NCBI GenBank assembly: GCA_964435195.1
Contig: CAYSYT010000003.1
Coordinates: 554-64,553, forward strand
From: an uncultured Christensenella sp.
Lineage (GTDB): Bacteria > Bacillota > Clostridia > Christensenellales > Borkfalkiaceae
Direction of reading: 5' to 3'
Length of the DNA: 64,000 nt
The position numbers were made by a program, and so were the translations under genes. The notes below the pieces were generated by a model. That model was not told the DNA's origin, searched no databases, and saw only the letters and a program-made list of their open reading frames with translations. Of this stretch, positions 26,932 through 37,558 are shown one piece after another; within the stretch, counting starts at the first letter, position 1; every line of letters starts with the position of its first letter.

Positions 26932-28461
26932 TCAGCCTTTTTTATTTTTTAAAATCATCAATTCTATAAACGCCTCCGCCGTTGCGTATGCGTCCGATAA
27001 CGCGCGATGATGATGAAAGGCTATGCCGAAGTGCTCCGCCACGGTATGTAAATCGTGCTTTTTCAAAAACGGCAAGTTGGCTCTTGCAAGTTCAACGGTA
27101 TCGATTATTTTGTTTTTCAACTCATATTCTTCCGCTCCTGCGAATCGTTTTATAAACTTGGTATCGAACTCGGCGTTATGCGCGACGATAATCGTACCTT
27201 CGATAAACTTCATAAAATCGGGAATAACGGAACTTATTTTAGGCGCGTCTTTTACCAACTCTTCGGTTATGCCCGTTAACTTTACGATTTCGTCCGTTAT
27301 AGGGTAATCCGGTTTTACGAGAGTGGTAAACTGTTCGGCTATTTTACCGTTTTTAATTTTCACCGCGCCTATTTCCGTTATGCCGTTATTCATAACGTCG
27401 AGTCCCGTAGTTTCCAAATCGAACACTACGTAATCGCAAGCGGTCAATTCTTCCGGCAATTCACTCTGCTCGTCGAAAACGCTCGCTATCTTAACCGTCG
27501 ATGCGGGCGAAGGAAATATCAGTCTGTATTCTTTCGGAGCGGTCTTTTTGAATTTGTCTTTCTTTACGAAGTCGTCGGGAAAAGTACAACGGTTTATCTT
27601 GCTAAACGTAAACGACCGTTTGCCGTTGTATTCGCCTATATTCCCGCGCGCGATAATCGCATCGCCGACCTGTAACTCTTTTATTTTTTGATAGGTATTC
27701 TTTTTTGAAAAATAAACTCCGCTCGTTCTTGCAGTGGTATCGTCCAAATGAATTATAAAAAAAGGTTTGCCGTTTTTGGTTTCTCTCTCGGCTATATCGG
27801 TTATCTTGCCGCAAACGACGACGTCGCCCGAAACGGCGTCCTCTAAATAAAGCGCCGTATCGCCTATGGAATAATCGTCTATAATCAAAGGGTTCTTAAC
27901 CTTTATCGTACGGTGTTCGATTTTTTGAAGTTCGCCTTCGTAAACGTCGTCGGATAAAAGGCTAACCGTTTCTTCCGCTTCTTTTATTTCCGTGCTTCCC
28001 GCAAAGTCCGAACAAAAAGTTCTCGCAAGAAAATCGTTCAACTTTGCCATAACGCCGTTTCTGTTCACGTATTCCACGCCGTCCGCCGTAAGACGCAACA
28101 CGTATTTAACAATATTTCCGTAAACGGAAGATATAACGTCGGTCGTTTTTAAAAAAATCGAAATAGACGGGTAATTTTTGTTTAAGTAATTATAAATTTC
28201 GTTATTTATCAACTGGTCGTTAGTAACTATTTTAACGACGGAAATTTCCACGCATCTGAAAACTGGCGCGGTTATTTTTTCGGCCTCGGCGAGAATTTTC
28301 GATTTCAAATCCTCGTTTACCGTTGCGTCGCATATAAAATTGTATTTCAACGACTTCGATTCACGGAATACTTCTACCGACGAAAGCCTTATGTTTTTAA
28401 GTCTGTCGTCGAGTCGTCGTACGTCGTTTATAAATTCTTCCGCCGTTTTTACCGTATACAT
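26932..28461 (-). CDS. PolC-like N-terminal/OB-fold/3'-5' exonuclease protein lacking the PHP and polymerase domains
   Basis: 509 aa. The C-terminal DEDDh exonuclease carries the motifs FDLETTGL, AHNAEFD and HRALSDA. It is preceded by a PolC-type OB fold (VVVCGKITDIAERETKNGKPFF...) and a PolC-like N-domain. The gene occupies the polC position upstream of rimP. Confidence 0.75.
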   Translation of the reverse strand: MYTVKTAEEFINDVRRLDDRLKNIRLSSVEVFRESKSLKYNFICDATVNEDLKSKILAEAEKITAPVFRCVEISVVKIVTNDQLINNEIYNYLNKNYPSISIFLKTTDVISSVYGNIVKYVLRLTADGVEYVNRNGVMAKLNDFLARTFCSDFAGSTEIKEAEETVSLLSDDVYEGELQKIEHRTIKVKNPLIIDDYSIGDTALYLEDAVSGDVVVCGKITDIAERETKNGKPFFIIHLDDTTARTSGVYFSKKNTYQKIKELQVGDAIIARGNIGEYNGKRSFTFSKINRCTFPDDFVKKDKFKKTAPKEYRLIFPSPASTVKIASVFDEQSELPEELTACDYVVFDLETTGLDVMNNGITEIGAVKIKNGKIAEQFTTLVKPDYPITDEIVKLTGITEELVKDAPKISSVIPDFMKFIEGTIIVAHNAEFDTKFIKRFAGAEEYELKNKIIDTVELARANLPFLKKHDLHTVAEHFGIAFHHHRALSDAYATAEAFIELMILKNKKG

Positions 28462-29559: not shown

Positions 29560-30459
29560 TTACCCGTTAAGCGCTCGCGTTTGATATAAATACACTATCT
29601 GCTGATAATAATCTTCGAGATAAAGCATCAATCTGTTTTCGTTAAGTATATCGTTATAAGCCGTTTTCGGCGACAAAGTATCGTAAAAACCGCAAACGCA
29701 ATCAAGCACGTCGTTATAATAACCGAGTTCCACCAATTCGTCTTTTGAAAGATTTTCGCTTCTGATACTTAAAAATTTCAATTCCAACGAAGCCTGCGCC
29801 TGTTTTACGGCGTTTCTGTATTTAAGTTCTTTTTCCTCTAAATTATTGTTGTATTTTATTATTTCGTTAGCACGGTCTTCGGCTTTTTCCTTCAATTCCA
29901 AATATTCAGATTGAATTTTCTGTTCTTTTATATCTTCGAAAATTTTTGCGGTTTCGTTTAACTTTTCCGTCAGTGCCGCTATTTCTTCCGTTAATACTTT
30001 TTTCTCCCGTCCGTAGTCAGCGTTAAGGTCGGCAATCTCTTTTGCGCGCGTTTTTTCTATCTCGGCTACTTTAACGAAATAAGCGTCGCTTTTTTCCTCC
30101 TGCCCGTTTACCGCGGCAACGTTAACCGAAACGATTGCGGCGCGGTATTTCTCTTCGACTTCGGAAACGGCAAGCTTTTCCGCGCTCTCCACGGCAATCA
30201 ATTTTGCTTGCAGTTCTTCGACGCTTTTTTTAATTTCGTCGGCATATTCGAGTTCGTTTTTTACGAGTTCGGCGTAAACGTTAAAACCCGCTCTTTCTTT
30301 CAATTCCGTTTCCGTCGGCATTTGTAATTCGAGCCGCGTCAAAGAAAGATTTTCCAAGGTTACGCCCTCGTAATACGTTCTTTTTATTCTGTAATACATA
30401 AAAATATCCGATAAAACGTCGAACATTTGCGTTTTAGTTACGGGGATGTCGAAATCCAT
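29560..30459 (-). CDS. hypothetical coiled-coil protein
   Basis: 299-aa ORF with a long E/K-rich heptad-like central region. It follows the 409-aa ORF after a 12-nt gap and an RBS. Confidence 0.6.
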   Translation of the reverse strand: MDFDIPVTKTQMFDVLSDIFMYYRIKRTYYEGVTLENLSLTRLELQMPTETELKERAGFNVYAELVKNELEYADEIKKSVEELQAKLIAVESAEKLAVSEVEEKYRAAIVSVNVAAVNGQEEKSDAYFVKVAEIEKTRAKEIADLNADYGREKKVLTEEIAALTEKLNETAKIFEDIKEQKIQSEYLELKEKAEDRANEIIKYNNNLEEKELKYRNAVKQAQASLELKFLSIRSENLSKDELVELGYYNDVLDCVCGFYDTLSPKTAYNDILNENRLMLYLEDYYQQIVYLYQTRALNG

Positions 30460-30471
30460 ATTTTCCTCCTT

Positions 30472-31701
30472 TTATACTCTTAAAGTATAAATAATTTTTT
30501 TAACTTTTTTCGCGTCGCCGCGCCCTTTTATCGCAACGGTAAAATATTCCGACCGCAAGTTCGGGTAAACTTTGCCCGAACGTGGAATTACGTACGTTTT
30601 TTTAATGCGCTCGGCGGTTATTTCCAACTCTACGGACACTTCGGATTTTACTTCTACCGAATACAAAACCTTATCTCCGTCAAAATTAAAATCCGTTTCT
30701 TTCTTGAAAACCTTCCATTCTCCGAAACCGTTCGATATTTTTTTGAATTCTCTTGTTTTTTTATCGAACGACACACCCGACGCAAAAATTTCAATACCTT
30801 CCGAGTTCAAAAAACTTTCTTCTTTTAAGGCAGTGTCGTAAACGTACAAAAACCGTCCGCCGAAAATTTTCATCGGCAAGGCGTAAACGCCGTTAACGAC
30901 ACACGACCCGCCGTCTATCGTAAAATCGCGCTCTTGCAAATTGCAATCGACGGCGGAAATTTTTTCGTTGAAAAATAGATACAACCGACCGTTTCCGACC
31001 AAATATACGCAATCCCCTGCAACGGCAATACTTCTTCCGTCCGACTTAAATGCAAATTTTAACGTATGTTTAAGCGTGACGTCGGTATCTGAATTACCTA
31101 CCGTAACTTTCAACACGCCGTATTCGGCAAAAACGTATAAGTTACCGCCGACTACGGTAAGTTTAAGCAATTTGCCGTAAGAAGAATTTACTATCAAATA
31201 CGTATCGGTTACGCAATCCGCCGTAGGCGAAGTTCCGCCTTGCCGCGAATTGAAATAAATTTTATTTTCTTTAACGGCAAACGCTCTGCCCTTATAACGA
31301 ACGTACCCGTCGGAACATAACGTACTAAAAACGCAAACGTTTCCCCCTAACAAAGTAACCGTCGAATTTTCTCGGTTAACAATCGCCGTTACCGTTTTCC
31401 CTTTTTTTACCGCCGTAAAAACCTGCGGCGCAACGCCGTACCTTTCAAATGAAATTTTAGAAACGCCGTTTTCTCCGCACTCGTATAAATAACCGTCGTC
31501 GCAAAAAATCAATTTACGCCCGTCGACTTCGTAAACTTCAACGGGATTATAACCGCTCGGAATAAAAACGTTCTCTCCCGAAAACGTTACGCCCTTGCCA
31601 CTTTCCGTTATTCCTTCGCAATAATCCACGTTATTCAAAAGCGAACAGGCTGTTTTTTTCCGATTGGAAGAAACTTCCGCCGCGCTTTTTATAAACCTCA
31701 T
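30472..31701 (-). CDS. hypothetical protein with beta-propeller-like repeats
   Basis: 409-aa ORF with repeated G-x-x-hydrophobic-Y-hydrophobic-F/V blades (GNLYVFAEYG, GRLYLFFN, GRFLYVYD). Its start overlaps the upstream ORF's stop (ATGA). Confidence 0.6.
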   Translation of the reverse strand: MRFIKSAAEVSSNRKKTACSLLNNVDYCEGITESGKGVTFSGENVFIPSGYNPVEVYEVDGRKLIFCDDGYLYECGENGVSKISFERYGVAPQVFTAVKKGKTVTAIVNRENSTVTLLGGNVCVFSTLCSDGYVRYKGRAFAVKENKIYFNSRQGGTSPTADCVTDTYLIVNSSYGKLLKLTVVGGNLYVFAEYGVLKVTVGNSDTDVTLKHTLKFAFKSDGRSIAVAGDCVYLVGNGRLYLFFNEKISAVDCNLQERDFTIDGGSCVVNGVYALPMKIFGGRFLYVYDTALKEESFLNSEGIEIFASGVSFDKKTREFKKISNGFGEWKVFKKETDFNFDGDKVLYSVEVKSEVSVELEITAERIKKTYVIPRSGKVYPNLRSEYFTVAIKGRGDAKKVKKIIYTLRV

Positions 31702-32252
31702 ACAAAACTCCTTTCTTTAATCTTTATATTCTTCGGCGAACAAATTTCCGCTATTCCGTCGGTATATTTTTTATGAAAAATCACGGCGTCGTCAAACGCT
31801 CTCTCCGTCAAACAGTATTCCGCGCACGTACCGTATGCGATAACGCGCGTCGGTACGGAAGTTTCGGAATATCCGACGGTATCGTCCGTTCCGTAATTGC
31901 AAGGCACGTATTCGTATTCTACCGTAACGCAAGGTTCTTTAACCGATAAATATTCGGTATGTTTTTCAAAACGCACATCCTTTCCGTTTAAGCCCGTAAC
32001 ACGGCGTATTTTACGCAAAACCTCCTTAAATTCGGAATAATAAATTCTGCCGTTTTTCGTATTAACGGTTTCGCATATCACCATAGGCACGTACGTACAA
32101 GCAAGTTCGTTAAGCACTACGTTCGCGCAACGGGTCATAACGTTTACCTGATAAAGCGTTTGAGTATCGCCGTCGCCCGTTTGTAAATAATCGACGACGT
32201 TTTCTCTACCTAAAAGAATAGCCGTTAATCTAATAATATTCTTAATCGTCAT
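31698..32252 (-). CDS. hypothetical protein (possibly phage-derived)
   Basis: The start is set at MTIKN (ATG 32252) after an AAGGAG RBS. I recognised no family. Confidence 0.55.
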   Translation of the reverse strand: MTIKNIIRLTAILLGRENVVDYLQTGDGDTQTLYQVNVMTRCANVVLNELACTYVPMVICETVNTKNGRIYYSEFKEVLRKIRRVTGLNGKDVRFEKHTEYLSVKEPCVTVEYEYVPCNYGTDDTVGYSETSVPTRVIAYGTCAEYCLTERAFDDAVIFHKKYTDGIAEICSPKNIKIKERSFV

Positions 32253-32271
32253 AAAACTCTCCTTTTTAAAT

Positions 32272-32306
32272 ATGCCGAGCCAAAAGGCTCGGCATAACTT
32301 TTTTTT
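32272..32306. terminator. 10-bp GC-rich hairpin with A/T runs on both sides
   Basis: Stem atgccgagcc, loop aaaa, stem ggctcggcat. The T-run follows on the plus strand and an A-run precedes on the minus strand. Confidence 0.4.
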
Positions 32307-32442
32307 ACGAAAACACAAAAATTCTAACTATTATTTTATTCCGCTTATCATACCTTGACCGATAGGTCTTGCGCAAATAAGGTCGGCGTATTTTACGAGC
32401 GTTGCCGTATAAACGGGTTTCCCCGCGACTTGTCTTAATATC

Positions 32443-33306
32443 TTACCGTCTTCGCCTTCCAACCAACGGTTCTATCACGTGCGCGTTTTCGTCGAATTCC
32501 GAATAAACCAACCCCGTACTGCTTTTAAACCTGCCGTAGCGCCTGCTTTCTATTTGGTCGGCGGATAAACTTTTAGTAAGATTTTCCGTTTCGACGGCAT
32601 CGAGAAAGGGATTGTCCGCCCATTCCATAAATTCGCACCAAACGTCGGGCGAATTCGAAAGGTTAAGAAAGATTTTTTCGTAAATAAACGTCAAGCCTTT
32701 TAAAGGCGTCATCGTTCCGAAAATATCACCTTTCCTGTCTAAAATTCTCATACGGCACTCGTCGTAGATATCTTCCGGCGGTTCTTCGTCGAACCATACG
32801 AAATCGAGCGAACTCCCCTGAAACTTTTCTCTGCCTTGGTCACAAGACTTAAACCCTATAACCGAAATACCGCCGAAAACGTTTTTAACTCTTATTTGGT
32901 CGATAACGCCTCTTCTCGGGCACTCTTTTTTGCCGGACAGCATAGTTACGTCTTCAATCCATTCGGGATTAAGATAATCCAAAATCTTGTTTTGAGCGAC
33001 GTCCCTTTGAACCTGCGTCGACAACGAAACCACCCACCCGAAAACGTTTGCTTTGTTTTTTCTGTAAGGATGAATTCCCCTCGCCATATAAACCGTTTCG
33101 ACTGCCCCGCATTCCGTTTTACCGCTTCTGTTTCCGCCGAAAACCCACCTGTTCTTTTTGTCGCATTTGTGAAACTCCAACTGCTTCAAATGAATTTTAT
33201 CGCCGACGTTATATTTTAATAAGCGATTATTCTTTTCGCGGCGCGCCTGTTCTTTTTCTATTTCTTTAATTTTCATTATCACTTCACGCATATTTGACAA
33301 ACTCAC
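32443..33306 (-). pseudogene. phage terminase large subunit, N-terminal ATPase domain only (truncated)
   Basis: Walker A GGNRSGKT and Walker B LDFVWFDE. The ORF ends after 287 aa with an unrelated RRRR tail. There is no nuclease domain, and no terS or portal gene is adjacent. Confidence 0.7.
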
Positions 33307-33390
33307 CTTTTTTACGATATTTTTTTCGTGTTCGCACTACGAACGAAAGTGTATAATCTTTTTTACCGTTTAACGGAATTAGGTGCGATT

Positions 33391-34122
33391 ATGAAAAAAT
33401 TTATTATTATAACAATCGTTTTCTTGTTTTTACCTTTTCTAACGCCTTCGGTATACGTCAAAGCCGAAACGGTTTTCGAATACGGAAGAATAATTACCCA
33501 AGACACCCCTTTCTACTCCGATGCCGACGGCGTAAACCTTTTGTTTTATCTGCCGTATACCTATTACGTAAAAATCGCCGAGAAAGGCGAAATATTATCT
33601 CACGTGGAAATGTACGGCGAAAACGGAATACCGTTAATCGACGGCTACGTACCGACCGAAAAATTGTTTTTCGACGGGCTGAAAGTTAAAAATCCGTATC
33701 CTTCGGTAACGCTCGATACTCTCGACACGTCCGTACTTTACCGCGATAGGAACTTTTCTTCTCCCGTTTGCTATATTTTTTCGCAAAGAACCCTTAATTA
33801 CGTAGGCCGCATTACCGACGCAAACGGCAATTTTTACTATTACGTATCTTACAATAACCGCCTCGGTTACGTTAGCGAAGACGCGGTTGCTCCGTTTACT
33901 TTGCCCGACCACCCCAACGAACTCACCTTTATTCCGTCGCAAGAACCCGAACAACCGGACGAAACGGCTTCCGATACGACTGCCGACGATTTTTTCAGTC
34001 TTAAAGTTTCGATAGTCGTTTGCCTTGCGTTTGCGGGATTGACAGCCCTGTTCATCGTCCTCAAAAAGAAAGATAAACGTTCGGTTGCGATAAGTTATTA
34101 CGACGAAAACGATTACGAATAA
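33391..34122 (+). CDS. secreted SH3b-like repeat protein with a C-terminal membrane anchor
   Basis: Signal peptide MKKFIIITIVFLFLPFL...VKAE, two SH3b-like segments, a P/E/D linker, and a TM helix followed by KKKDKR. The start is set at ATG 33391. Confidence 0.6.
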   Translation: MKKFIIITIVFLFLPFLTPSVYVKAETVFEYGRIITQDTPFYSDADGVNLLFYLPYTYYVKIAEKGEILSHVEMYGENGIPLIDGYVPTEKLFFDGLKVKNPYPSVTLDTLDTSVLYRDRNFSSPVCYIFSQRTLNYVGRITDANGNFYYYVSYNNRLGYVSEDAVAPFTLPDHPNELTFIPSQEPEQPDETASDTTADDFFSLKVSIVVCLAFAGLTALFIVLKKKDKRSVAISYYDENDYE

Positions 34123-34626
34123 TTAAACGGCTGCTTTAATTTTTTTAACTTTCGGTTTACTCTTTTCTACGTACGCTCTCCCGTTTTTTCTGCATAGAAT
34201 TTCGTATTCTTTTACCCTGCGCAGCAACTCCGCGAAAAATTCCATTCGTAAAAATTCTTTTTCGAATCTTTGGTCGTTTATTCCGAATTTTTCCAACCTG
34301 TCGGCACATTTTTCGGCAATCTTGATTTGCCTTCTAAAATACGCCCTGCGCGAAGTATCTATTAAACGGTACTCGTCTTTCGGTTTAGACTTAACGTATT
34401 TGTAATCCAAACATTCCGCGTCGTACGGGTCAAGTCTTTCCAAAATTTTATCGACTGCGTTTTTGGTTTCTATAAGCAAGTCTTTTTGAGCGGTAAACTC
34501 CACTATCTTCGCACATTGAAAATATGCATAAGAGGTATCCGTCATAGAAGATAATGCTTTTTTCTCGACCAGTTCTCTATCTGCCCGATAACGGCGTCTA
34601 AACTCGAATAAGAATATAAAATACAT
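34123..34626 (-). CDS. hypothetical protein, possible ArpU/RinA-like phage late-gene regulator
   Basis: 167-aa ORF. The segment LIDTSRRAYFRRQIKIAEKCADRL resembles the sigma region-4 / ArpU-type HTH. This family call is weak. Confidence 0.35.
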   Translation of the reverse strand: MYFIFLFEFRRRYRADRELVEKKALSSMTDTSYAYFQCAKIVEFTAQKDLLIETKNAVDKILERLDPYDAECLDYKYVKSKPKDEYRLIDTSRRAYFRRQIKIAEKCADRLEKFGINDQRFEKEFLRMEFFAELLRRVKEYEILCRKNGRAYVEKSKPKVKKIKAAV

Positions 34627-34700
34627 TTTGCATATAAAACATTCATAAACTTTCTCCCGATAAATTATTTAATACGTTCGTTTCGCCTGCAAGCGCCCAT

Positions 34701-34730
34701 ATTATATGCGTCGAAAATTCGCGAAGTCAA
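34701..34730 (-). promoter_or_regulatory. candidate promoter reading toward the 34626 gene
   Basis: The minus strand reads TTGACT, an 18-nt spacer, then TATAAT. Confidence 0.45.
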
Positions 34731-34790
34731 TACTATATGACCGTAAATACAACTAAAAAAATTTATACTTTTTTTATTGTCGGTCGACCA

Positions 34791-34818
34791 TTGACTTTTA
34801 ATTTTTTAGTTGTAAAAT
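34791..34818 (+). promoter_or_regulatory. candidate promoter reading rightward
   Basis: TTGACT, a 16-nt spacer, then TAAAAT. Confidence 0.45.
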
Positions 34819-34828
34819 ATCAAATTTC

Positions 34829-34842
34829 CGAACATATGTTCG
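34829..34842. promoter_or_regulatory. LexA (SOS / Cheo) box
   Basis: Perfect 14-bp palindrome CGAACATATGTTCG, matching the idealised Gram-positive LexA consensus CGAAC-N4-GTTCG. It starts 10 nt downstream of the -10 hexamer. Confidence 0.7.
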
Positions 34843-34987
34843 TTTTTAAGATATCGCACAAAGTTGACAATATATGTCATATTTGAAAAAATAAAAGTAA
34901 AAAAAGAAAGTGCGTTAAGCACTTCTGTTTAAAATATTTTAAAAAAAGATTATTTTATTATATACAAAAATCTTTTTATATGATAAA

Positions 34988-37558
34988 ATGAACGGTATGA
35001 AAAGTTTTAAAATAAAAAAGCAATCTTTTATATTAACATTCGTGTTTTTTCTCGTTTTATCCGTAATTGCCTTCGGTTTTTCCGTAAAAACCGCAAATGC
35101 GGAAGTATCGGTTGCCTTAAATCTTTATCAACCGAATACCGTTATGGAATATAAGGAACTTTCCTCTCCCGACGATGCTTGTTACAGAAACGGAAAAATA
35201 GCCGTTATCGACAACAATAAACTTTTAGTCTATAAAAACGGAGCATATTCCGAACAACAATTTACCTCGTTAAAGCAGGTAAAGTTTTTCGACGACGATT
35301 ATCTTATCGTTTCGGATAATCAAGGTACGCCTAAATATTATAAAATCGCAATCGACGATTTAACTCAAAAAGAAGACCTTAACATCGGCGGCAACGATTT
35401 CGACCTTAACGGCGATTATCTGGTTTCGTCGTATGGTACGAGTATTTGGCTTTACGAACGCTCAAGCCTAACGTCGGGTCAAGATTACGGTAATAAAATT
35501 GACACAAACACACCCGTTTGCATAAACGGAGACGGTAAAATTTTCTTCGTTAGTGGCGGCAAACTTTTGTATTCTACCGTTAACGATATGTCTACAGAAA
35601 TTCACGTATCCGATAAAAGTCCGTCTTGTATTTTAGCCGATGCAGACTACGTATACTATTCGGTCGAGAATAAAATCTATAAAAAATCGCTAAACGGCAA
35701 TAACGAAACCGAACTTGAAATCAATACGACCGTATACGATAAAAGCAAAAATCCGTACACCAAATACGATTTAGGCAAACTTTTCTCCGTTACGGCAATG
35801 TCTTTTAAAAGCGGCAATTTACTCGTAACCGATAAAAGGTTAAACGCCGTTCAAGAATTTGAAATCGACCACGAAAAAAATCAACTGATTTTTACGGGTT
35901 TTGCGGTAGCAAAAGGCAAAACCGCGTTTAACAGAATAGGTTCATCGAACAAAGCGATAGACAGAAAAGGAAACACCGTTGCCGTATTAGACGATAAAAA
36001 ATTAACTATTATTACCGATACCGAAAACGGTAAAGAATACCGCAACGTTATTGCGTCTAAAACGGGCATTGCGCCACGCTATATCGCGCTCGGCGACGCC
36101 ACCTTTTTGCTGGCGGAAAATTCCAACTGTTTCAAAATTTTCGATTTAAAAACTCAAACGGTAAAAATAAGCGGAAATTTCGGAGCGGACATAACCGACG
36201 TATATTTTAACGACGGTAAATATTACTTTTTAATCAAATCGGGCAGCAACACGTCGGTATATTCTCTGAATGAAAATTCCGACGACGCCACTCCCAAAGA
36301 AATTATCAACCCGGGTCCCACCACGAATACGGGAGACCCCGTATTTACCGTAGATACCGACGGAAACGTTTATATAACCGACGATTTTAACGATAAGGTT
36401 AAAAAATATTCTCTTAAAGAAAACGGTTCTTACGACGCTTCCACTACGGAAATAAATTTTTCCGTTTCGAATTTCGTCGTAGGGATAAAAGAACTTTACG
36501 TTGACCTTGCAGGTAACCTGTTTGCGCTTAAAGAAGGTAATATATACTACCGTGCCACAGACGGCTCTATCGAAATTTATACGCCTGACGTAACTACGGA
36601 AAACAAAGTTACCTCTATGTCTATGAGCTTCGATAAAGACCAAGTATACTTTATCTGCCAAAACGAGGAAACGATACTGTCTACTACTTCCCTACCCAAC
36701 CTGACGCTTGCCGATATAGAAAAAACTTCCGACTATAAAACCAAAGGCGAAAGCGCGCGAGTAGAAAATCTTAAAATATTTACGACGAATATAAACGCAC
36801 CCGTTTATTCGGTTACCGCAACCGATAACGGCTTCGATTTTATCGAACTTATAGACGGCGAAAATAAAGAATTCGCCATAATTTACGACTACACCATTCA
36901 AGGTCAAACTTTTTCCGTACTCGTCGGCGAAAACAACGGTAAAACCGTAGAAGTTATAGTAAATAAAAACAATCTTACCGAAAAGCAAAACGTTCTGTCT
37001 TCGTCAAAATTCAGCGAAGTTTTCATCGCGACGGACGTAAATATGTATTACTTGCCGATAATAACGCTAAACGACGATTACTGTCTTATCAAAAACGGCG
37101 CGCCGTTAAGACTTTCCAAAAAAACACGCGTATCGGTAGAAAAAACTTTTAATTTCTTAAACGTCGATTATTATTACGCAAGCGCGGATATAGACGGAGA
37201 AATTTATACGGGGTATATTCCCGTAAATTTCACCGTGGAAATGCTTTCGCAAGACGCTTTAAAAGAAAAATTCACCTTTGAAAAATTAAAAGCAACGCAC
37301 GTTTTTTCGGACGAAGCGTTAACTACGGCAATTTGCGAAATAACCGAAACCGCCACCGTAAAATATTACGGAACGGAGAACGGCGTCGCGCTTATCAAGT
37401 ATGAAAAATCCGACGGTACGGTCGTTATAGGCTACGTTTCCGCCGATAAACTTTTCACGCCGCCGAATACGGTAATAAGAAACGTTTTGATAACGCTGCT
37501 CGTTACCTTGTCGGTCGCAACGACTTCCGTATACTTTATATTGAGAAAGAAAAATTAA
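34988..37558 (+). CDS. large secreted beta-propeller-like protein with SH3b-like domains and a C-terminal TM anchor
   Basis: 856 aa. Signal peptide ending ANA-E, NHL/YVTN-like blades (DGNVYITD, GNLFALKEGNIYY), C-terminal SH3b-like repeats, and a TM helix followed by RKKN. Confidence 0.6.
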   Translation: MNGMKSFKIKKQSFILTFVFFLVLSVIAFGFSVKTANAEVSVALNLYQPNTVMEYKELSSPDDACYRNGKIAVIDNNKLLVYKNGAYSEQQFTSLKQVKFFDDDYLIVSDNQGTPKYYKIAIDDLTQKEDLNIGGNDFDLNGDYLVSSYGTSIWLYERSSLTSGQDYGNKIDTNTPVCINGDGKIFFVSGGKLLYSTVNDMSTEIHVSDKSPSCILADADYVYYSVENKIYKKSLNGNNETELEINTTVYDKSKNPYTKYDLGKLFSVTAMSFKSGNLLVTDKRLNAVQEFEIDHEKNQLIFTGFAVAKGKTAFNRIGSSNKAIDRKGNTVAVLDDKKLTIITDTENGKEYRNVIASKTGIAPRYIALGDATFLLAENSNCFKIFDLKTQTVKISGNFGADITDVYFNDGKYYFLIKSGSNTSVYSLNENSDDATPKEIINPGPTTNTGDPVFTVDTDGNVYITDDFNDKVKKYSLKENGSYDASTTEINFSVSNFVVGIKELYVDLAGNLFALKEGNIYYRATDGSIEIYTPDVTTENKVTSMSMSFDKDQVYFICQNEETILSTTSLPNLTLADIEKTSDYKTKGESARVENLKIFTTNINAPVYSVTATDNGFDFIELIDGENKEFAIIYDYTIQGQTFSVLVGENNGKTVEVIVNKNNLTEKQNVLSSSKFSEVFIATDVNMYYLPIITLNDDYCLIKNGAPLRLSKKTRVSVEKTFNFLNVDYYYASADIDGEIYTGYIPVNFTVEMLSQDALKEKFTFEKLKATHVFSDEALTTAICEITETATVKYYGTENGVALIKYEKSDGTVVIGYVSADKLFTPPNTVIRNVLITLLVTLSVATTSVYFILRKKN

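Follow-up and report, generated by a model that had tools for sequence, protein, structure and literature searches.

A conserved consensus LexA-type box beside a phage-type regulator gene in the Christensenellales: probable operator of an inherited GTA-like element, broken in this genome

A perfect LexA-type box was found in an intergenic region of a 64,000-nucleotide stretch of DNA from an uncultured Christensenella species (the window). The box is probably a real SOS operator, serving a small phage-type activator that accompanies an inherited GTA-like capsid set, and this set is broken in the genome at hand. The features of the locus, in window coordinates, are the following.

29560-32318, minus strand: last three of the eight module genes (206, 409 and 299 aa), all open, assigned by order and sizes as in relatives (186, ~415 and 300 aa) rather than by alignment
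32337-33306, minus strand: TerL, cut short to residues 1 to ~281 and running into the final ~45 codons of the major capsid gene (32337-32471), the scar of a ~4-kb deletion
33328-34122, plus strand: gene of a small membrane protein, conserved genus-wide and convergent to the regulator gene
34123-34646, minus strand: Ltr/ArpU-like regulator gene, ~174 aa, frameshifted by a 1-nt deletion near 34575/34576
34701-34742, minus strand: TTGACT-18-TATAAT (34730-34701; 11 of 12 consensus matches), the regulator's proximal promoter, preceded by the element GGTCATAT (34742-34735)
34791-34818, plus strand: P_R, rightward sigma-A-type promoter TTGACT-16-TAAAAT; 10 of 12 consensus matches
34829-34842, no strand: predicted LexA (SOS) operator CGAACATATGTTCG, from the exact motif and its conservation
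34843-34870, minus strand: weak remnant of a leftward promoter, TTGTCA-16-TAAAAA (score 5.7), abutting the box and aimed at the regulator
34864-34886, no strand: repeat TTGACA-N6-TGTCATATT to the right of the box, 20-35 nt from it in both architectures described below
34907-34925: lineage-specific hairpin, terminator-like on the minus strand only, from folding and comparison with relatives
34961-34989, plus strand: proximal promoter of the 856-aa gene with an extended -10 (TGaTAAAAT) and a predicted leaderless mRNA; relatives have TGnTAAAAT, 6-8 nt and ATG
34997-37558, plus strand: membrane-anchored envelope protein gene, always to the right of the box and genus-restricted (24 of 24 genomes within the genus; 0 of 16 other families)

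The box, its promoters and its conservation

The sequence CGAACATATGTTCG at 34829-34842 is a perfect 14-bp palindrome that fits CGAAC-N4-GTTCG exactly and has an A/T-rich spacer, in agreement with an earlier note on this DNA that described it as the idealised SOS operator. The exact motif CGAAC-W4-GTTCG occurs once in the window and in none of 100 dinucleotide-preserving shuffles. Versions with one mismatch are not enriched in the window (6 observed against 5.1 expected), so the weight of the statistics lies with the perfect site only. The whole 1.93-Mb assembly holds seven exact CGAAC-N4-GTTCG sites, five of which have G+C-containing spacers and lie in apparently coding stretches; the two with A/T spacers, namely the window's box and a site at C4:40429, are identical.

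The promoter P_R, claimed in the same note as TTGACT-16-TAAAAT 10 nt before the box, was reproduced at its coordinates (-35 TTGACT at 34791-34796, -10 TAAAAT at 34813-34818). Its predicted start near 34825 would place the box at about +4 to +17. The 10-nt gap between -10 and box falls within the 8-11 nt found in 11 of the 12 loci that share the window's architecture (A-type), these 11 having an equivalent of P_R, and the 12 A-type loci form one branch of the regulator tree. Firmicute-type LexA operators (Cheo boxes) overlap or directly follow a promoter, and the site does so here. The repressing position attributed to the box is thus borne out, in that a LexA-type operator at this place would be able to block the rightward promoter. 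By sequence and position the palindrome is best read as a LexA-type operator, at which LexA would bind and through which transcription would become inducible by DNA damage.

At the other 19 loci of the genus (B-type) no rightward promoter precedes the box. A strong form of the leftward promoter (TTGTCA or TTGACA-16-TATAAT, 7-8 nt from the box) is present in about 9 of the 18 B-type loci that were scored, and equivalents occur in other families. The promoter that precedes the box in the window's clade faces away from the regulator, and this was counted against the main reading. The divergent TTGACT-18-TATAAT promoter of the minus strand, also claimed earlier, was found as described. Of the 31 regulator promoters, 12 have the composite TGWCATAW-N3-8-TTGA, as do 6 of the 12 rightward promoters of A-type loci and 4 of the 6 promoters of TerL; shuffles have it in ~0.1-0.25% of cases, and the pattern had been defined on these same related sequences. 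An assembly-wide scan for TGWCATAW with a -35 gave three promoter-like sites before unrelated genes, so the element by itself defines no regulon.

A LexA-type box lies in the same intergenic region in all 31 genus loci examined, as CGAACATTTGTTCG in 23 of them. Among same-genus genomes the flanking proteins are only 30-45% identical, yet all those examined retain the regulator, the box and the envelope gene on either side. Outside the genus, a box is found at most 250 nt from the regulator in 13 of 28 loci and 7 of 10 families (background for a box within 250 nt: 3% in shuffles and 1.9% in flanking windows); with the window's own family included, the pairing of box and regulator extends to at least eight families. 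In the other families the -10 sits 7-13 nt upstream of the box and is aimed at the regulator, or the box lies between -35 and -10. About half of the regulator loci outside the genus carry no recognisable box, and this too was counted against the main reading.

The downstream gene, the hairpin and the host LexA

The 856-aa open reading frame to the right of the box had been described as a membrane-anchored beta-propeller/SH3b gene beginning at 34988. The reading frame is real, but the SH3b assignment was not confirmed by Pfam, which gave only a weak NHL match below threshold (E = 0.005). The extended -10 (TGaTAAAAT, ending at 34985) is conserved, and in relatives an ATG comes 6-8 nt after it, which makes ATG 34997 the likely true start, on a leaderless mRNA. 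Neither the 856-aa protein nor the 264-aa product of the small membrane protein gene gave a match above threshold in Pfam, PHROG or NCBIfam.

It is conceivable, though unlikely, that the box makes the 856-aa envelope protein an SOS function in its own right, such as a damage-induced wall or division factor, unconnected to the phage-derived module. Gram-positive SOS regulons include wall-binding membrane proteins, for example YneA, and the conserved promoter before the box in the window's clade aims at this gene. However, the box is far older than the gene, which is confined to the genus whereas the pair of box and regulator spans all the families counted above. Furthermore, the 19 B-type loci lack a rightward promoter before the box, a conserved promoter of the gene's own lies close to it, 56-366 nt downstream, and the upstream element of the rightward promoter is common to the TerL promoter.

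A short SOS-inducible RNA had also been suggested. In this reading P_R and the box would give a non-coding RNA of ~100 nt, or a small peptide, ending at the hairpin, and the three elements do lie within ~110 nt. The 124-nt stretch also folds better than shuffles (z = -4.3), a difference that is due in large part to two palindromic operators. The hairpin, reported earlier together with a T-rich stretch at 34906-34935, is real (-8.7 kcal/mol for the plus and -7.9 kcal/mol for the minus strand), but the T-run on the plus strand is weak (TCTGTTTAAA) and it is the minus-strand tail CTTTTTTTAC that is terminator-like. No terminator-like hairpin occurs at that place in any of the 11 other loci of the same architecture. 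An Rfam scan of 34500-35100 returned one meaningless miRNA match only, no conserved small ORF was seen, and the distance from box to gene ranges from 56 to 366 nt, with little conserved beyond the TGACA/TGTCATATT repeat. An RNA or peptide of this kind is therefore improbable. The hairpin was also considered as the terminator of an upstream gene in a sister strain and rejected as such; an IS30-type insertion lies beyond the hairpin there.

The assembly encodes LexA (TIGR00498, 190.6 bits against a cut-off of 111), with a single LexA match. The gene's own promoter, which is leaderless, carries CGAACAAATGTTTG over its -35, one mismatch from the box motif and in the position for autoregulation; the lexA promoters of four relatives have AAACAWWTGTTTGAC, a weaker AAAC/GTTT variant. 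In relatives, the motif also lies over the promoter of a radical-SAM DNA-repair gene pair (TIGR03916/TIGR03915). One-mismatch boxes in relatives had been considered as markers of lexA, an assignment that was rejected, as they are located at this repair pair. The motif would be expected at the classical SOS genes (recA, uvrAB, translesion polymerase). In the assembly, no box within three mismatches was found upstream of uvrB or of the IMS-family (Y-family) polymerase gene, nor any box in the 400 nt preceding recA, which is in an operon after cinA. The LexA regulon is thus unusual, and of the promoters at which the motif had been expected (lexA, recA and uvr), lexA has it with one mismatch, whereas recA and uvrB do not. 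In five relatives with genomes of 1.2-1.6 Mb, the box of this locus is either the sole perfect one, one of a pair of perfect ones, or the sole near-perfect one.

A different repressor of the same specificity, for instance an element-encoded S24-type LexA paralogue, might act at the palindrome in place of the host LexA. One relative does have a second LexA-like gene with a perfect box before it, and the absence of the box from the classical SOS genes would fit such a repressor. There is, however, only the one LexA match in the assembly, and the motif is the Firmicute LexA consensus that is also present at lexA and at the DNA-repair gene pair, which leaves such a repressor a poor candidate.

The regulator and the capsid/packaging module

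The gene to the left of the box, called ArpU-like in the earlier note, holds up as phage-type (ArpU/RinA/sigma-70 region 4-like), the similarity being remote only. It belongs to the single-copy core of the genus (57 of 61 genomes), and an intact allele, P0001, 97% identical to the frameshifted one, is available from another sample. Neither the window's ORF nor P0001 has a Pfam match; PHROG and NCBIfam gave nothing above threshold for the window's ORF and sub-threshold matches only for P0001, so that no Ltr, ArpU or RinA family model recognises the window protein above its threshold. Distant members of the family match phrog_36 at 1e-9 and Sigma70_r4_2, with ArpU and RinA models below cut-off, and one distant member matches DUF1492 at 22 bits (cut-off 21.5). 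The AlphaFold model of the regulator is all-helical (pLDDT 81), and its best counterparts among viral proteins are small phage sigma-70 region 4 or “transcriptional activator” proteins (TM 0.5-0.67, E 0.02-0.1); fold and profile searches against the PDB gave no significant match. From these remote similarities, the regulator appears to be late-activator-like, with a putative sigma-70 region 4-like DNA-binding part.

Outside the genus, the regulator usually heads a module that continues with TerL, a TerS-like gene, portal, scaffold, major capsid and three more genes (annotated as terminase, portal (1e-43), major head protein (5e-56), scaffold-like and three unknowns). Where regulator and capsid gene are on the same contig, the regulator is co-oriented and at most 9 kb upstream in 36 of 41 genomes of the order. 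The position directly upstream of a terminase/morphogenesis operon, typical of Ltr proteins, is thus seen in the order but not in most genomes of the window's genus, where the regulator is 40-60 kb from the module or adjoins it with one gene between. Among 151 genomes, regulator and capsid gene occur together in 53, the regulator alone in 4, the capsid gene alone in 13 and neither in 81; a Fisher test on this co-occurrence overstates it, since the counts come from related genomes. Given the linkage and co-occurrence of regulator and capsid gene, the box is best read as the SOS operator of the late-activator-like regulator of a GTA-like element.

TerL is a single-copy core gene in all 61 genomes of the genus (70-81% identity) and the capsid gene is found in 41 of the 96 genera of the order (37-60% identity), homologues overall being known from 35-41 of the 96. 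Such vertical inheritance and conservation across species is characteristic of GTAs, as is the presence of structural and packaging genes without genes for replication, integration or lysogeny. Of the gene classes considered (integrase, replication and lysogeny), none was seen next to the module, which has housekeeping genes around it. Judged by its gene content, the module resembles the head/packaging section of a GTA-like particle, which it would help to produce.

In the assembly, the ~4-kb deletion has taken the C-terminal half of TerL, the TerS-like gene, portal, scaffold and most of the capsid gene, and the stretch following the TerL truncation is the tail of the capsid gene. The 206-aa product beyond it has a weak match to a head-tail adaptor. 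This ORF was considered as the displaced C-terminal half of TerL and rejected, as a relative's full-length TerL matches the assembly over residues 1-276 only. With the regulator frameshifted and the head genes deleted, the operator survives in this assembly while the particle system that it served cannot work.

Such decay, together with the phage origin of the genes, is what might be expected if a prophage had degraded recently and left its induction switch behind, a reading offered in the earlier note; box, ArpU-like gene and terminase fragment would then be debris of one integrated phage without a present host role. This view can hardly be maintained, since the regulator (57/61), box (31/31), single-copy TerL (61/61) and envelope genes are kept through the genus, homologues extend over the order, the module lies among housekeeping genes with none for integration, replication or lysogeny, and the decay is specific to this assembly, an intact allele existing elsewhere. 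That the palindrome is a functionless product of chance is practically negligible as an explanation: one-mismatch versions occur at chance frequency, but the exact site appeared in no shuffle, and a box has been kept at all 31 orthologous genus loci examined despite diverged non-coding surroundings.

Proposed circuit, known systems and implications

In the ancestral wiring that we propose for the GTA-like element, a sigma-A promoter would read through the box into the regulator gene. LexA on the box would block this promoter, and upon DNA damage RecA-stimulated cleavage of LexA would allow the regulator to be made. The regulator would then act at two promoters, its own proximal one and that of TerL, each of which has TGWCATAW just upstream of a TTGACT -35. 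In the window's clade, an insert of ~85-90 bp appears to have come in between the box and the regulator's proximal promoter, bringing a strong rightward promoter with its predicted start just before the box. LexA would then gate transcription toward the 856-aa gene, which would keep its own leaderless proximal promoter, and the old leftward promoter would have decayed. The idea that the insert is a copied TerL promoter region was dropped, as local alignments exceeded shuffles in few pairs only, and just the short shared element was kept. As a tentative extension, somewhat less likely than not, the path from LexA through an Ltr-like activator with positive feedback to the TerL operon could be the master switch of an undescribed GTA-like particle. 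This particle system would be inherited across many families of gut Christensenellales and would underlie genetically the GTA-like packaging of DNA in virus-like particles of human faeces. The LexA-gated, activator-type promoter would have been copied before the envelope gene in one clade, so that a surface protein of the host was recruited to the particle programme.

Parts of this circuit have parallels in known systems. SigN (ZpdN) of the Bacillus subtilis plasmid pBS32 was shown by experiment to have a LexA-repressed strong sigma-A promoter and a SigN-dependent promoter (Burton et al. 2019, PMC6751061). The likeness would be that of a small regulator of a phage-like element, derepressed by damage and then reinforced by positive feedback, with the box-bearing distal promoter and the TGWCATAW proximal promoter as the predicted counterparts here. 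SigN is, however, a full sigma factor that is plasmid-borne and leads to cell death (PMC6751061), whereas the present regulator is of ~175 aa, remotely region 4-like, chromosomal, vertically inherited and linked to a capsid/packaging module. The Ltr superfamily (RinA, ArpU, LtrA (Sigma70_r4), LtrB (DUF1492) and LtrC) comprises late activators of Gram-positive phages, in which the ltr gene is under a CI repressor and not directly under LexA as proposed here (Quiles-Puchalt et al. 2013, PMC3753634). Ltr proteins are small helical activators encoded directly upstream of terS/terL, a position that the regulator shares in most families, and they bind short repeats by the late promoter, for which TGWCATAW, 3-8 nt before TTGA at the TerL and regulator promoters, is a candidate counterpart. 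The window protein differs in being below threshold in every family model and in that the regulator has moved away from the module in the genus.

PBSX of Bacillus subtilis (with Xpf) and RcGTA of Rhodobacter capsulatus (with GafA) are host-kept particles that depend on the damage response via a dedicated activator, and in both LexA acts indirectly or at other genes. Here, in contrast, the consensus LexA box is directly on the promoter of the activator, and no long-tail gene is among the annotated genes of the module. Host LexA boxes on a key promoter, with no repressor of its own at that step, are known from GIL01 of Bacillus thuringiensis (Fornelos et al. 2015, PMC4551915). The present element would resemble it as a phage-derived element relying on predicted host LexA boxes, but GIL01 is an autonomously replicating temperate phage that needs the co-factor gp7, whereas the element here is chromosomal and non-autonomous. 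The FpGTA of Faecalibacterium is a near-ubiquitous compact operon of TerS, TerL, portal, scaffold, major capsid and several hypotheticals (Borodovich et al. 2026, PMC12946183). The module described here has a similarly compact gene content and also belongs to a gut Clostridia lineage, the comparison being one of that published description with a module known from its genes.

The same study newly reports GTA-like packaging as common in the human gut, including packaging of whole genomes in Christensenellaceae MAGs, and notes GTAs as SOS-inducible; it presents neither a Christensenellaceae gene cluster, nor any regulation in that family, nor a regulator or promoter of FpGTA (PMC12946183). The locus offers a testable control point, with one consensus LexA box at the promoter of a small, dedicated activator that accompanies a capsid/packaging module. 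For the window's own genome the meaning is more modest, the operator being intact and the system behind it broken. More generally, the finding points to a minimal SOS regulon, where in genomes of 1.1-1.9 Mb a domesticated phage regulator, and not a repair gene, has the best LexA site. If the proposed circuit is true, the prediction would be that gene exchange in a gut lineage that is heritable and associated with health is set off by drugs that damage DNA and by genotoxins from the diet, and the regulator and its promoters would be handles with which to switch on the particles in culture or in a surrogate host.

The box and its conservation within the genus

The region between a small Ltr/ArpU-like gene (the regulator) and an 856-aa envelope protein gene to its right contains the following features.

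34123-34646, minus strand: regulator gene (~174 aa), starting at ATG 34646 (MNVLYAK...), not at the 34626 ATG of a 167-aa ORF
34730-34701, minus strand: divergent promoter TTGACT-18-TATAAT
34791-34818, plus strand: rightward promoter TTGACT-16-TAAAAT
34829-34842: LexA-type box, CGAACATATGTTCG, beginning 10 nt past the end of the rightward promoter
34907-34925: hairpin
34961-34997, plus strand: promoter and probable start of the 856-aa gene

The perfect palindrome reads exactly as the earlier note claimed, and both promoters lie where it had placed them. The hairpin that it saw in the leader is a real structure, but scores as a terminator on the minus strand only, not on the plus strand. Exact CGAAC-W4-GTTCG occurs once in the 64 kb and in 0/100 shuffles, and one-mismatch boxes are at chance frequency in the window (6 observed vs 5.1 expected).

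The regulator gene is found in 57 of 61 genomes of the genus (31/31 of those of high quality), with a LexA-type box upstream at all 30 fetched loci, spelled CGAACATTTGTTCG in 23 of 31 genus loci when the window is counted in. All 24 same-genus genomes have the 856-aa gene (27-41% identity) and 16 other families lack it; its orthologues are preceded by a perfect box at 10 of 11 fetched loci. The opposite flank, with its 264-aa membrane protein gene, is conserved as well. In a genome-wide comparison of five relatives of 1.2-1.6 Mb, the box of the regulator locus is the sole perfect box in two (G006 and G055), one of two perfect boxes in two others (G021 and G041), and the sole near-perfect box in the fifth (G001). 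The leftover prophage switch considered in the earlier note is thereby excluded as a recent remnant, since box, regulator and flanking genes are kept genus-wide, and retention across orthologous loci likewise excludes a chance palindrome. Conservation of this kind indicates that the box is a genuine SOS operator maintained by selection.

The regulator as partner of the box

The 856-aa gene has a conserved promoter of its own, in which an extended -10 (TGnTAAAAT) is followed after 6-8 nt by the ATG (window 34961-34997 and orthologues), and no Shine-Dalgarno sequence precedes the gene in the window or at orthologous loci. Because the -10 ends so close to the ATG, the mRNA is probably leaderless, and the true start is probably 34997; the ORF that the earlier note began at 34988 exists, but the conserved -10-to-ATG spacing makes that start the less likely one. 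Between the box and this gene there is neither a conserved terminator nor a conserved small ORF, and an Rfam scan of the region gave no match. At the equivalent locus of a near-identical strain (L128), an IS30-family transposase gene is inserted near the equivalent of window 34943, past the hairpin but ahead of the 856-aa gene's promoter.

Searching a library of 1.84 billion proteins with a regulator-family profile retrieved 724 clusters at 50% identity; within the order, single-copy homologues were found in 35 of the 96 genera. Outside the genus, a box (GAAC-W4-GTTC, ≤1 mismatch, ≤250 nt upstream) precedes the regulator at 13 of 28 loci, in 7 of 10 families, against control rates of 3% in shuffles and 1.9% in flanking windows. 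The order on the regulator's sense strand is promoter, 7-13 nt, box, ribosome-binding site; in one family the box is positioned between -35 and -10. Since the box precedes the regulator beyond the genus, where the 856-aa gene is absent, its old and general partner is the regulator gene and not the envelope gene, which is confined to the genus.

The description of this gene as ArpU-like holds in part: the window's own protein has no family-model match, but distant members of its family match ArpU/RinA as well as ECF-sigma models below cut-off. Such members also match phrog_36 (1e-9), DUF1492 and Sigma70_r4_2. The AlphaFold model of the regulator is all helical (pLDDT 81) and has no PDB counterpart; it resembles small phage sigma-70 region 4 / transcriptional activator proteins (TM 0.5-0.67, E 0.02-0.1).

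Regulator loci of the genus fall into two promoter architectures, with the box 172-227 nt from the regulator's ATG in type A (12 loci, window included) and about 90-100 nt from it in type B (19 loci). One branch of the regulator protein tree separates the types (support 87/86). Type A has 85-90 bp of extra DNA relative to type B, carrying a canonical rightward promoter; at 11 of 12 loci the gap from the end of its -10 to the box is 8-11 nt. No rightward promoter of this kind stands in front of the box in type B. At most type-A loci the extra DNA also holds a pair of TTTTGWWCAAAA palindromes with a spacing of about 22 bp, degenerate in the window, which look like the operator pair of a second repressor. 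The pair sits between the two divergent promoters (window 34747-34785; L028, L030, L032, L036, L038 and L042). At about 9 of the 18 type-B loci scored, a leftward TTGTCA/TTGACA-16-TATAAT promoter, directed at the regulator, lies 7-8 nt off the other edge of the box; its counterpart in the window is reduced to TTGTCA-16-TAAAAA. Both types retain the regulator's proximal promoter (TTGACT-17/18-TATAAT) and, right of the box, a TGACA-N6-TGTCATATT repeat. These patterns point to a single origin of the rightward rewiring in the window's clade.

The phage-derived module and its state in this genome

The terminase fragment noted left of the box (32443-33306) is confirmed as the N-terminal half of TerL, a gene that all 61 genus genomes have in single copy (70-81% identity), its open frames spanning about 480-530 aa. 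In relatives, TerL is the first gene of an eight-gene block.

Genes of the eight-gene block in relatives (gene; size; match)
TerL; about 490 aa; terminase large subunit
TerS-like; 99 aa; phrog_309
Portal; about 620 aa; phrog_156, 1e-43
Scaffold-like; about 145 aa; no match
Major head protein; about 392 aa; phrog_14242, 5e-56
Last three genes; 186, about 415 and 300 aa; without annotation

Among 151 genomes of the order, 53 carry both regulator and capsid gene, 4 the regulator only, 13 the capsid gene only and 81 neither (nominal Fisher p 2e-23, an overstatement because the genomes are related). Where both genes are on one contig, the regulator is co-oriented with the capsid gene and ≤9 kb upstream of it in 36 of 41 cases, the same placement upstream of morphogenesis genes as that of phage late activators (PMC3753634).

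A short element, TGWCATAW, recurs 3-8 nt ahead of the TTGA -35 at several promoter classes: 12/31 regulator proximal promoters, 6/12 type-A rightward promoters, 4/6 TerL promoters and 4/28 regulator promoters of other families, against about 0.1-0.25% in shuffles. As a site for the activator it is a weak candidate: the pattern was both derived from and counted in one set of related genomes, and in a genome-wide scan it also turned up ahead of unrelated genes.

In the window's assembly (GCA_964435195.1) the regulator's reading frame is apparently broken by the loss of 1 nt near 34575/34576 (GQIE/NWSRKK at the junction vs GQIDELVEKK in relatives). An intact, 97%-identical allele from another sample has the same box, promoter and repeat; the strain that carries it is the one with the IS30-type insertion. 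A relative's full-length TerL aligns to this assembly over residues 1-276 only; the gene reads as cut after about residue 281 (32337-33306), and the 45 or so codons past this point (32337-32471) encode the C-terminus of the capsid protein. Because the N-terminal half of TerL thus runs directly into the capsid gene's end, about 4 kb appears to be missing: nowhere in the assembly were the C-terminal half of TerL, the TerS-like, portal and scaffold genes or the bulk of the capsid gene found. The last three module genes are still open in the window. Elsewhere in the window, between ispG and rimP, lies a 509-aa ORF (26932-28461) that encodes an OB-fold together with a 3'-5' exonuclease domain and looks like the N-terminal portion of PolC, not the full-length polymerase.

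The SOS regulon and the proposed circuit

The same assembly (1.93 Mb, 40.6% G+C, 124 contigs) holds seven exact CGAAC-N4-GTTCG sites. Five of these have G+C-containing spacers and lie within stretches that read as coding; the two with A/T spacers are identical, namely the window's box and a site outside the window on contig C4. This second site (C4:40429-40442, CGAACATATGTTCG) lies 13 nt past an extended -10 promoter and precedes a gene of 98-107 aa, which a 764-aa gene in the same orientation follows further downstream; integrase-like fragments adjoin the box-led genes, and it is probably a second, mobile LexA target.

The single lexA gene has the promoter CGAACAAATGTTTGACG-17-TAAAAT; 6 nt separate the -10 from the ATG, and a one-mismatch box covers the -35 of this leaderless gene; four relatives have AAACAWWTGTTTGAC at the equivalent position. 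Leaderless lexA mRNA from an extended -10 promoter is predicted at C23:24413-24540 and at loci L120-L123, and lexA is divergent from a small cysteine-rich gene, an arrangement kept in relatives. In relatives (G006:C10, G021:C6 and G055:C3; loci L125-L127) a TIGR03916 radical-SAM / TIGR03915 DNA-repair gene pair also has a near-perfect box over its promoter; a search did not find this pair in the window's assembly. Because it marks lexA and, in relatives, the repair pair, the motif reads as the SOS operator of the window's lineage. The proposal that it would mark lexA, recA and uvr promoters stood for lexA, with one mismatch, but not for recA (in an operon, behind cinA), with no box in the preceding 400 nt, nor for uvrB, which like the IMS-family (Y-family) polymerase gene has no box upstream at ≤3 mismatches. 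The SOS regulon is small, unusual and reduced.

One relative encodes a second LexA-like gene with a perfect CGAACATAAGTTCG directly upstream (G021:C11:14344-14971), which may be a mobile LexA paralogue. Three contigs of the window's assembly, C101 (4.5 kb), C82 and C108, are small and of odd composition, and C101 has seven GAACATTTGTTC-like boxes among short ORFs; they could be a host plasmid or phage, or else bin contamination.

From what the genomes show, namely a conserved operator, conserved promoters and linked genes, we propose the following circuit. LexA would repress a sigma-A promoter feeding the activator; DNA damage would lift this repression, and the activator would reinforce its own proximal promoter and switch on transcription of the TerL operon. 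The type-A clade would differ in that its box controls a newly gained rightward promoter, similar in style, that reads towards the envelope protein gene. Among tested circuits the nearest is that of SigN of pBS32, which combines a LexA-repressed promoter with an autoregulated one (PMC6751061); the present one is inferred from sequence. The closest element to the module is FpGTA, and the paper describing it reports GTA-like packaging in gut Christensenellaceae, with no gene cluster for this family and no regulator given (PMC12946183). The system resembles two known kinds, activators of phage-like elements that are gated by LexA and GTAs that depend on the SOS response, and is apparently broken in the window's own genome.
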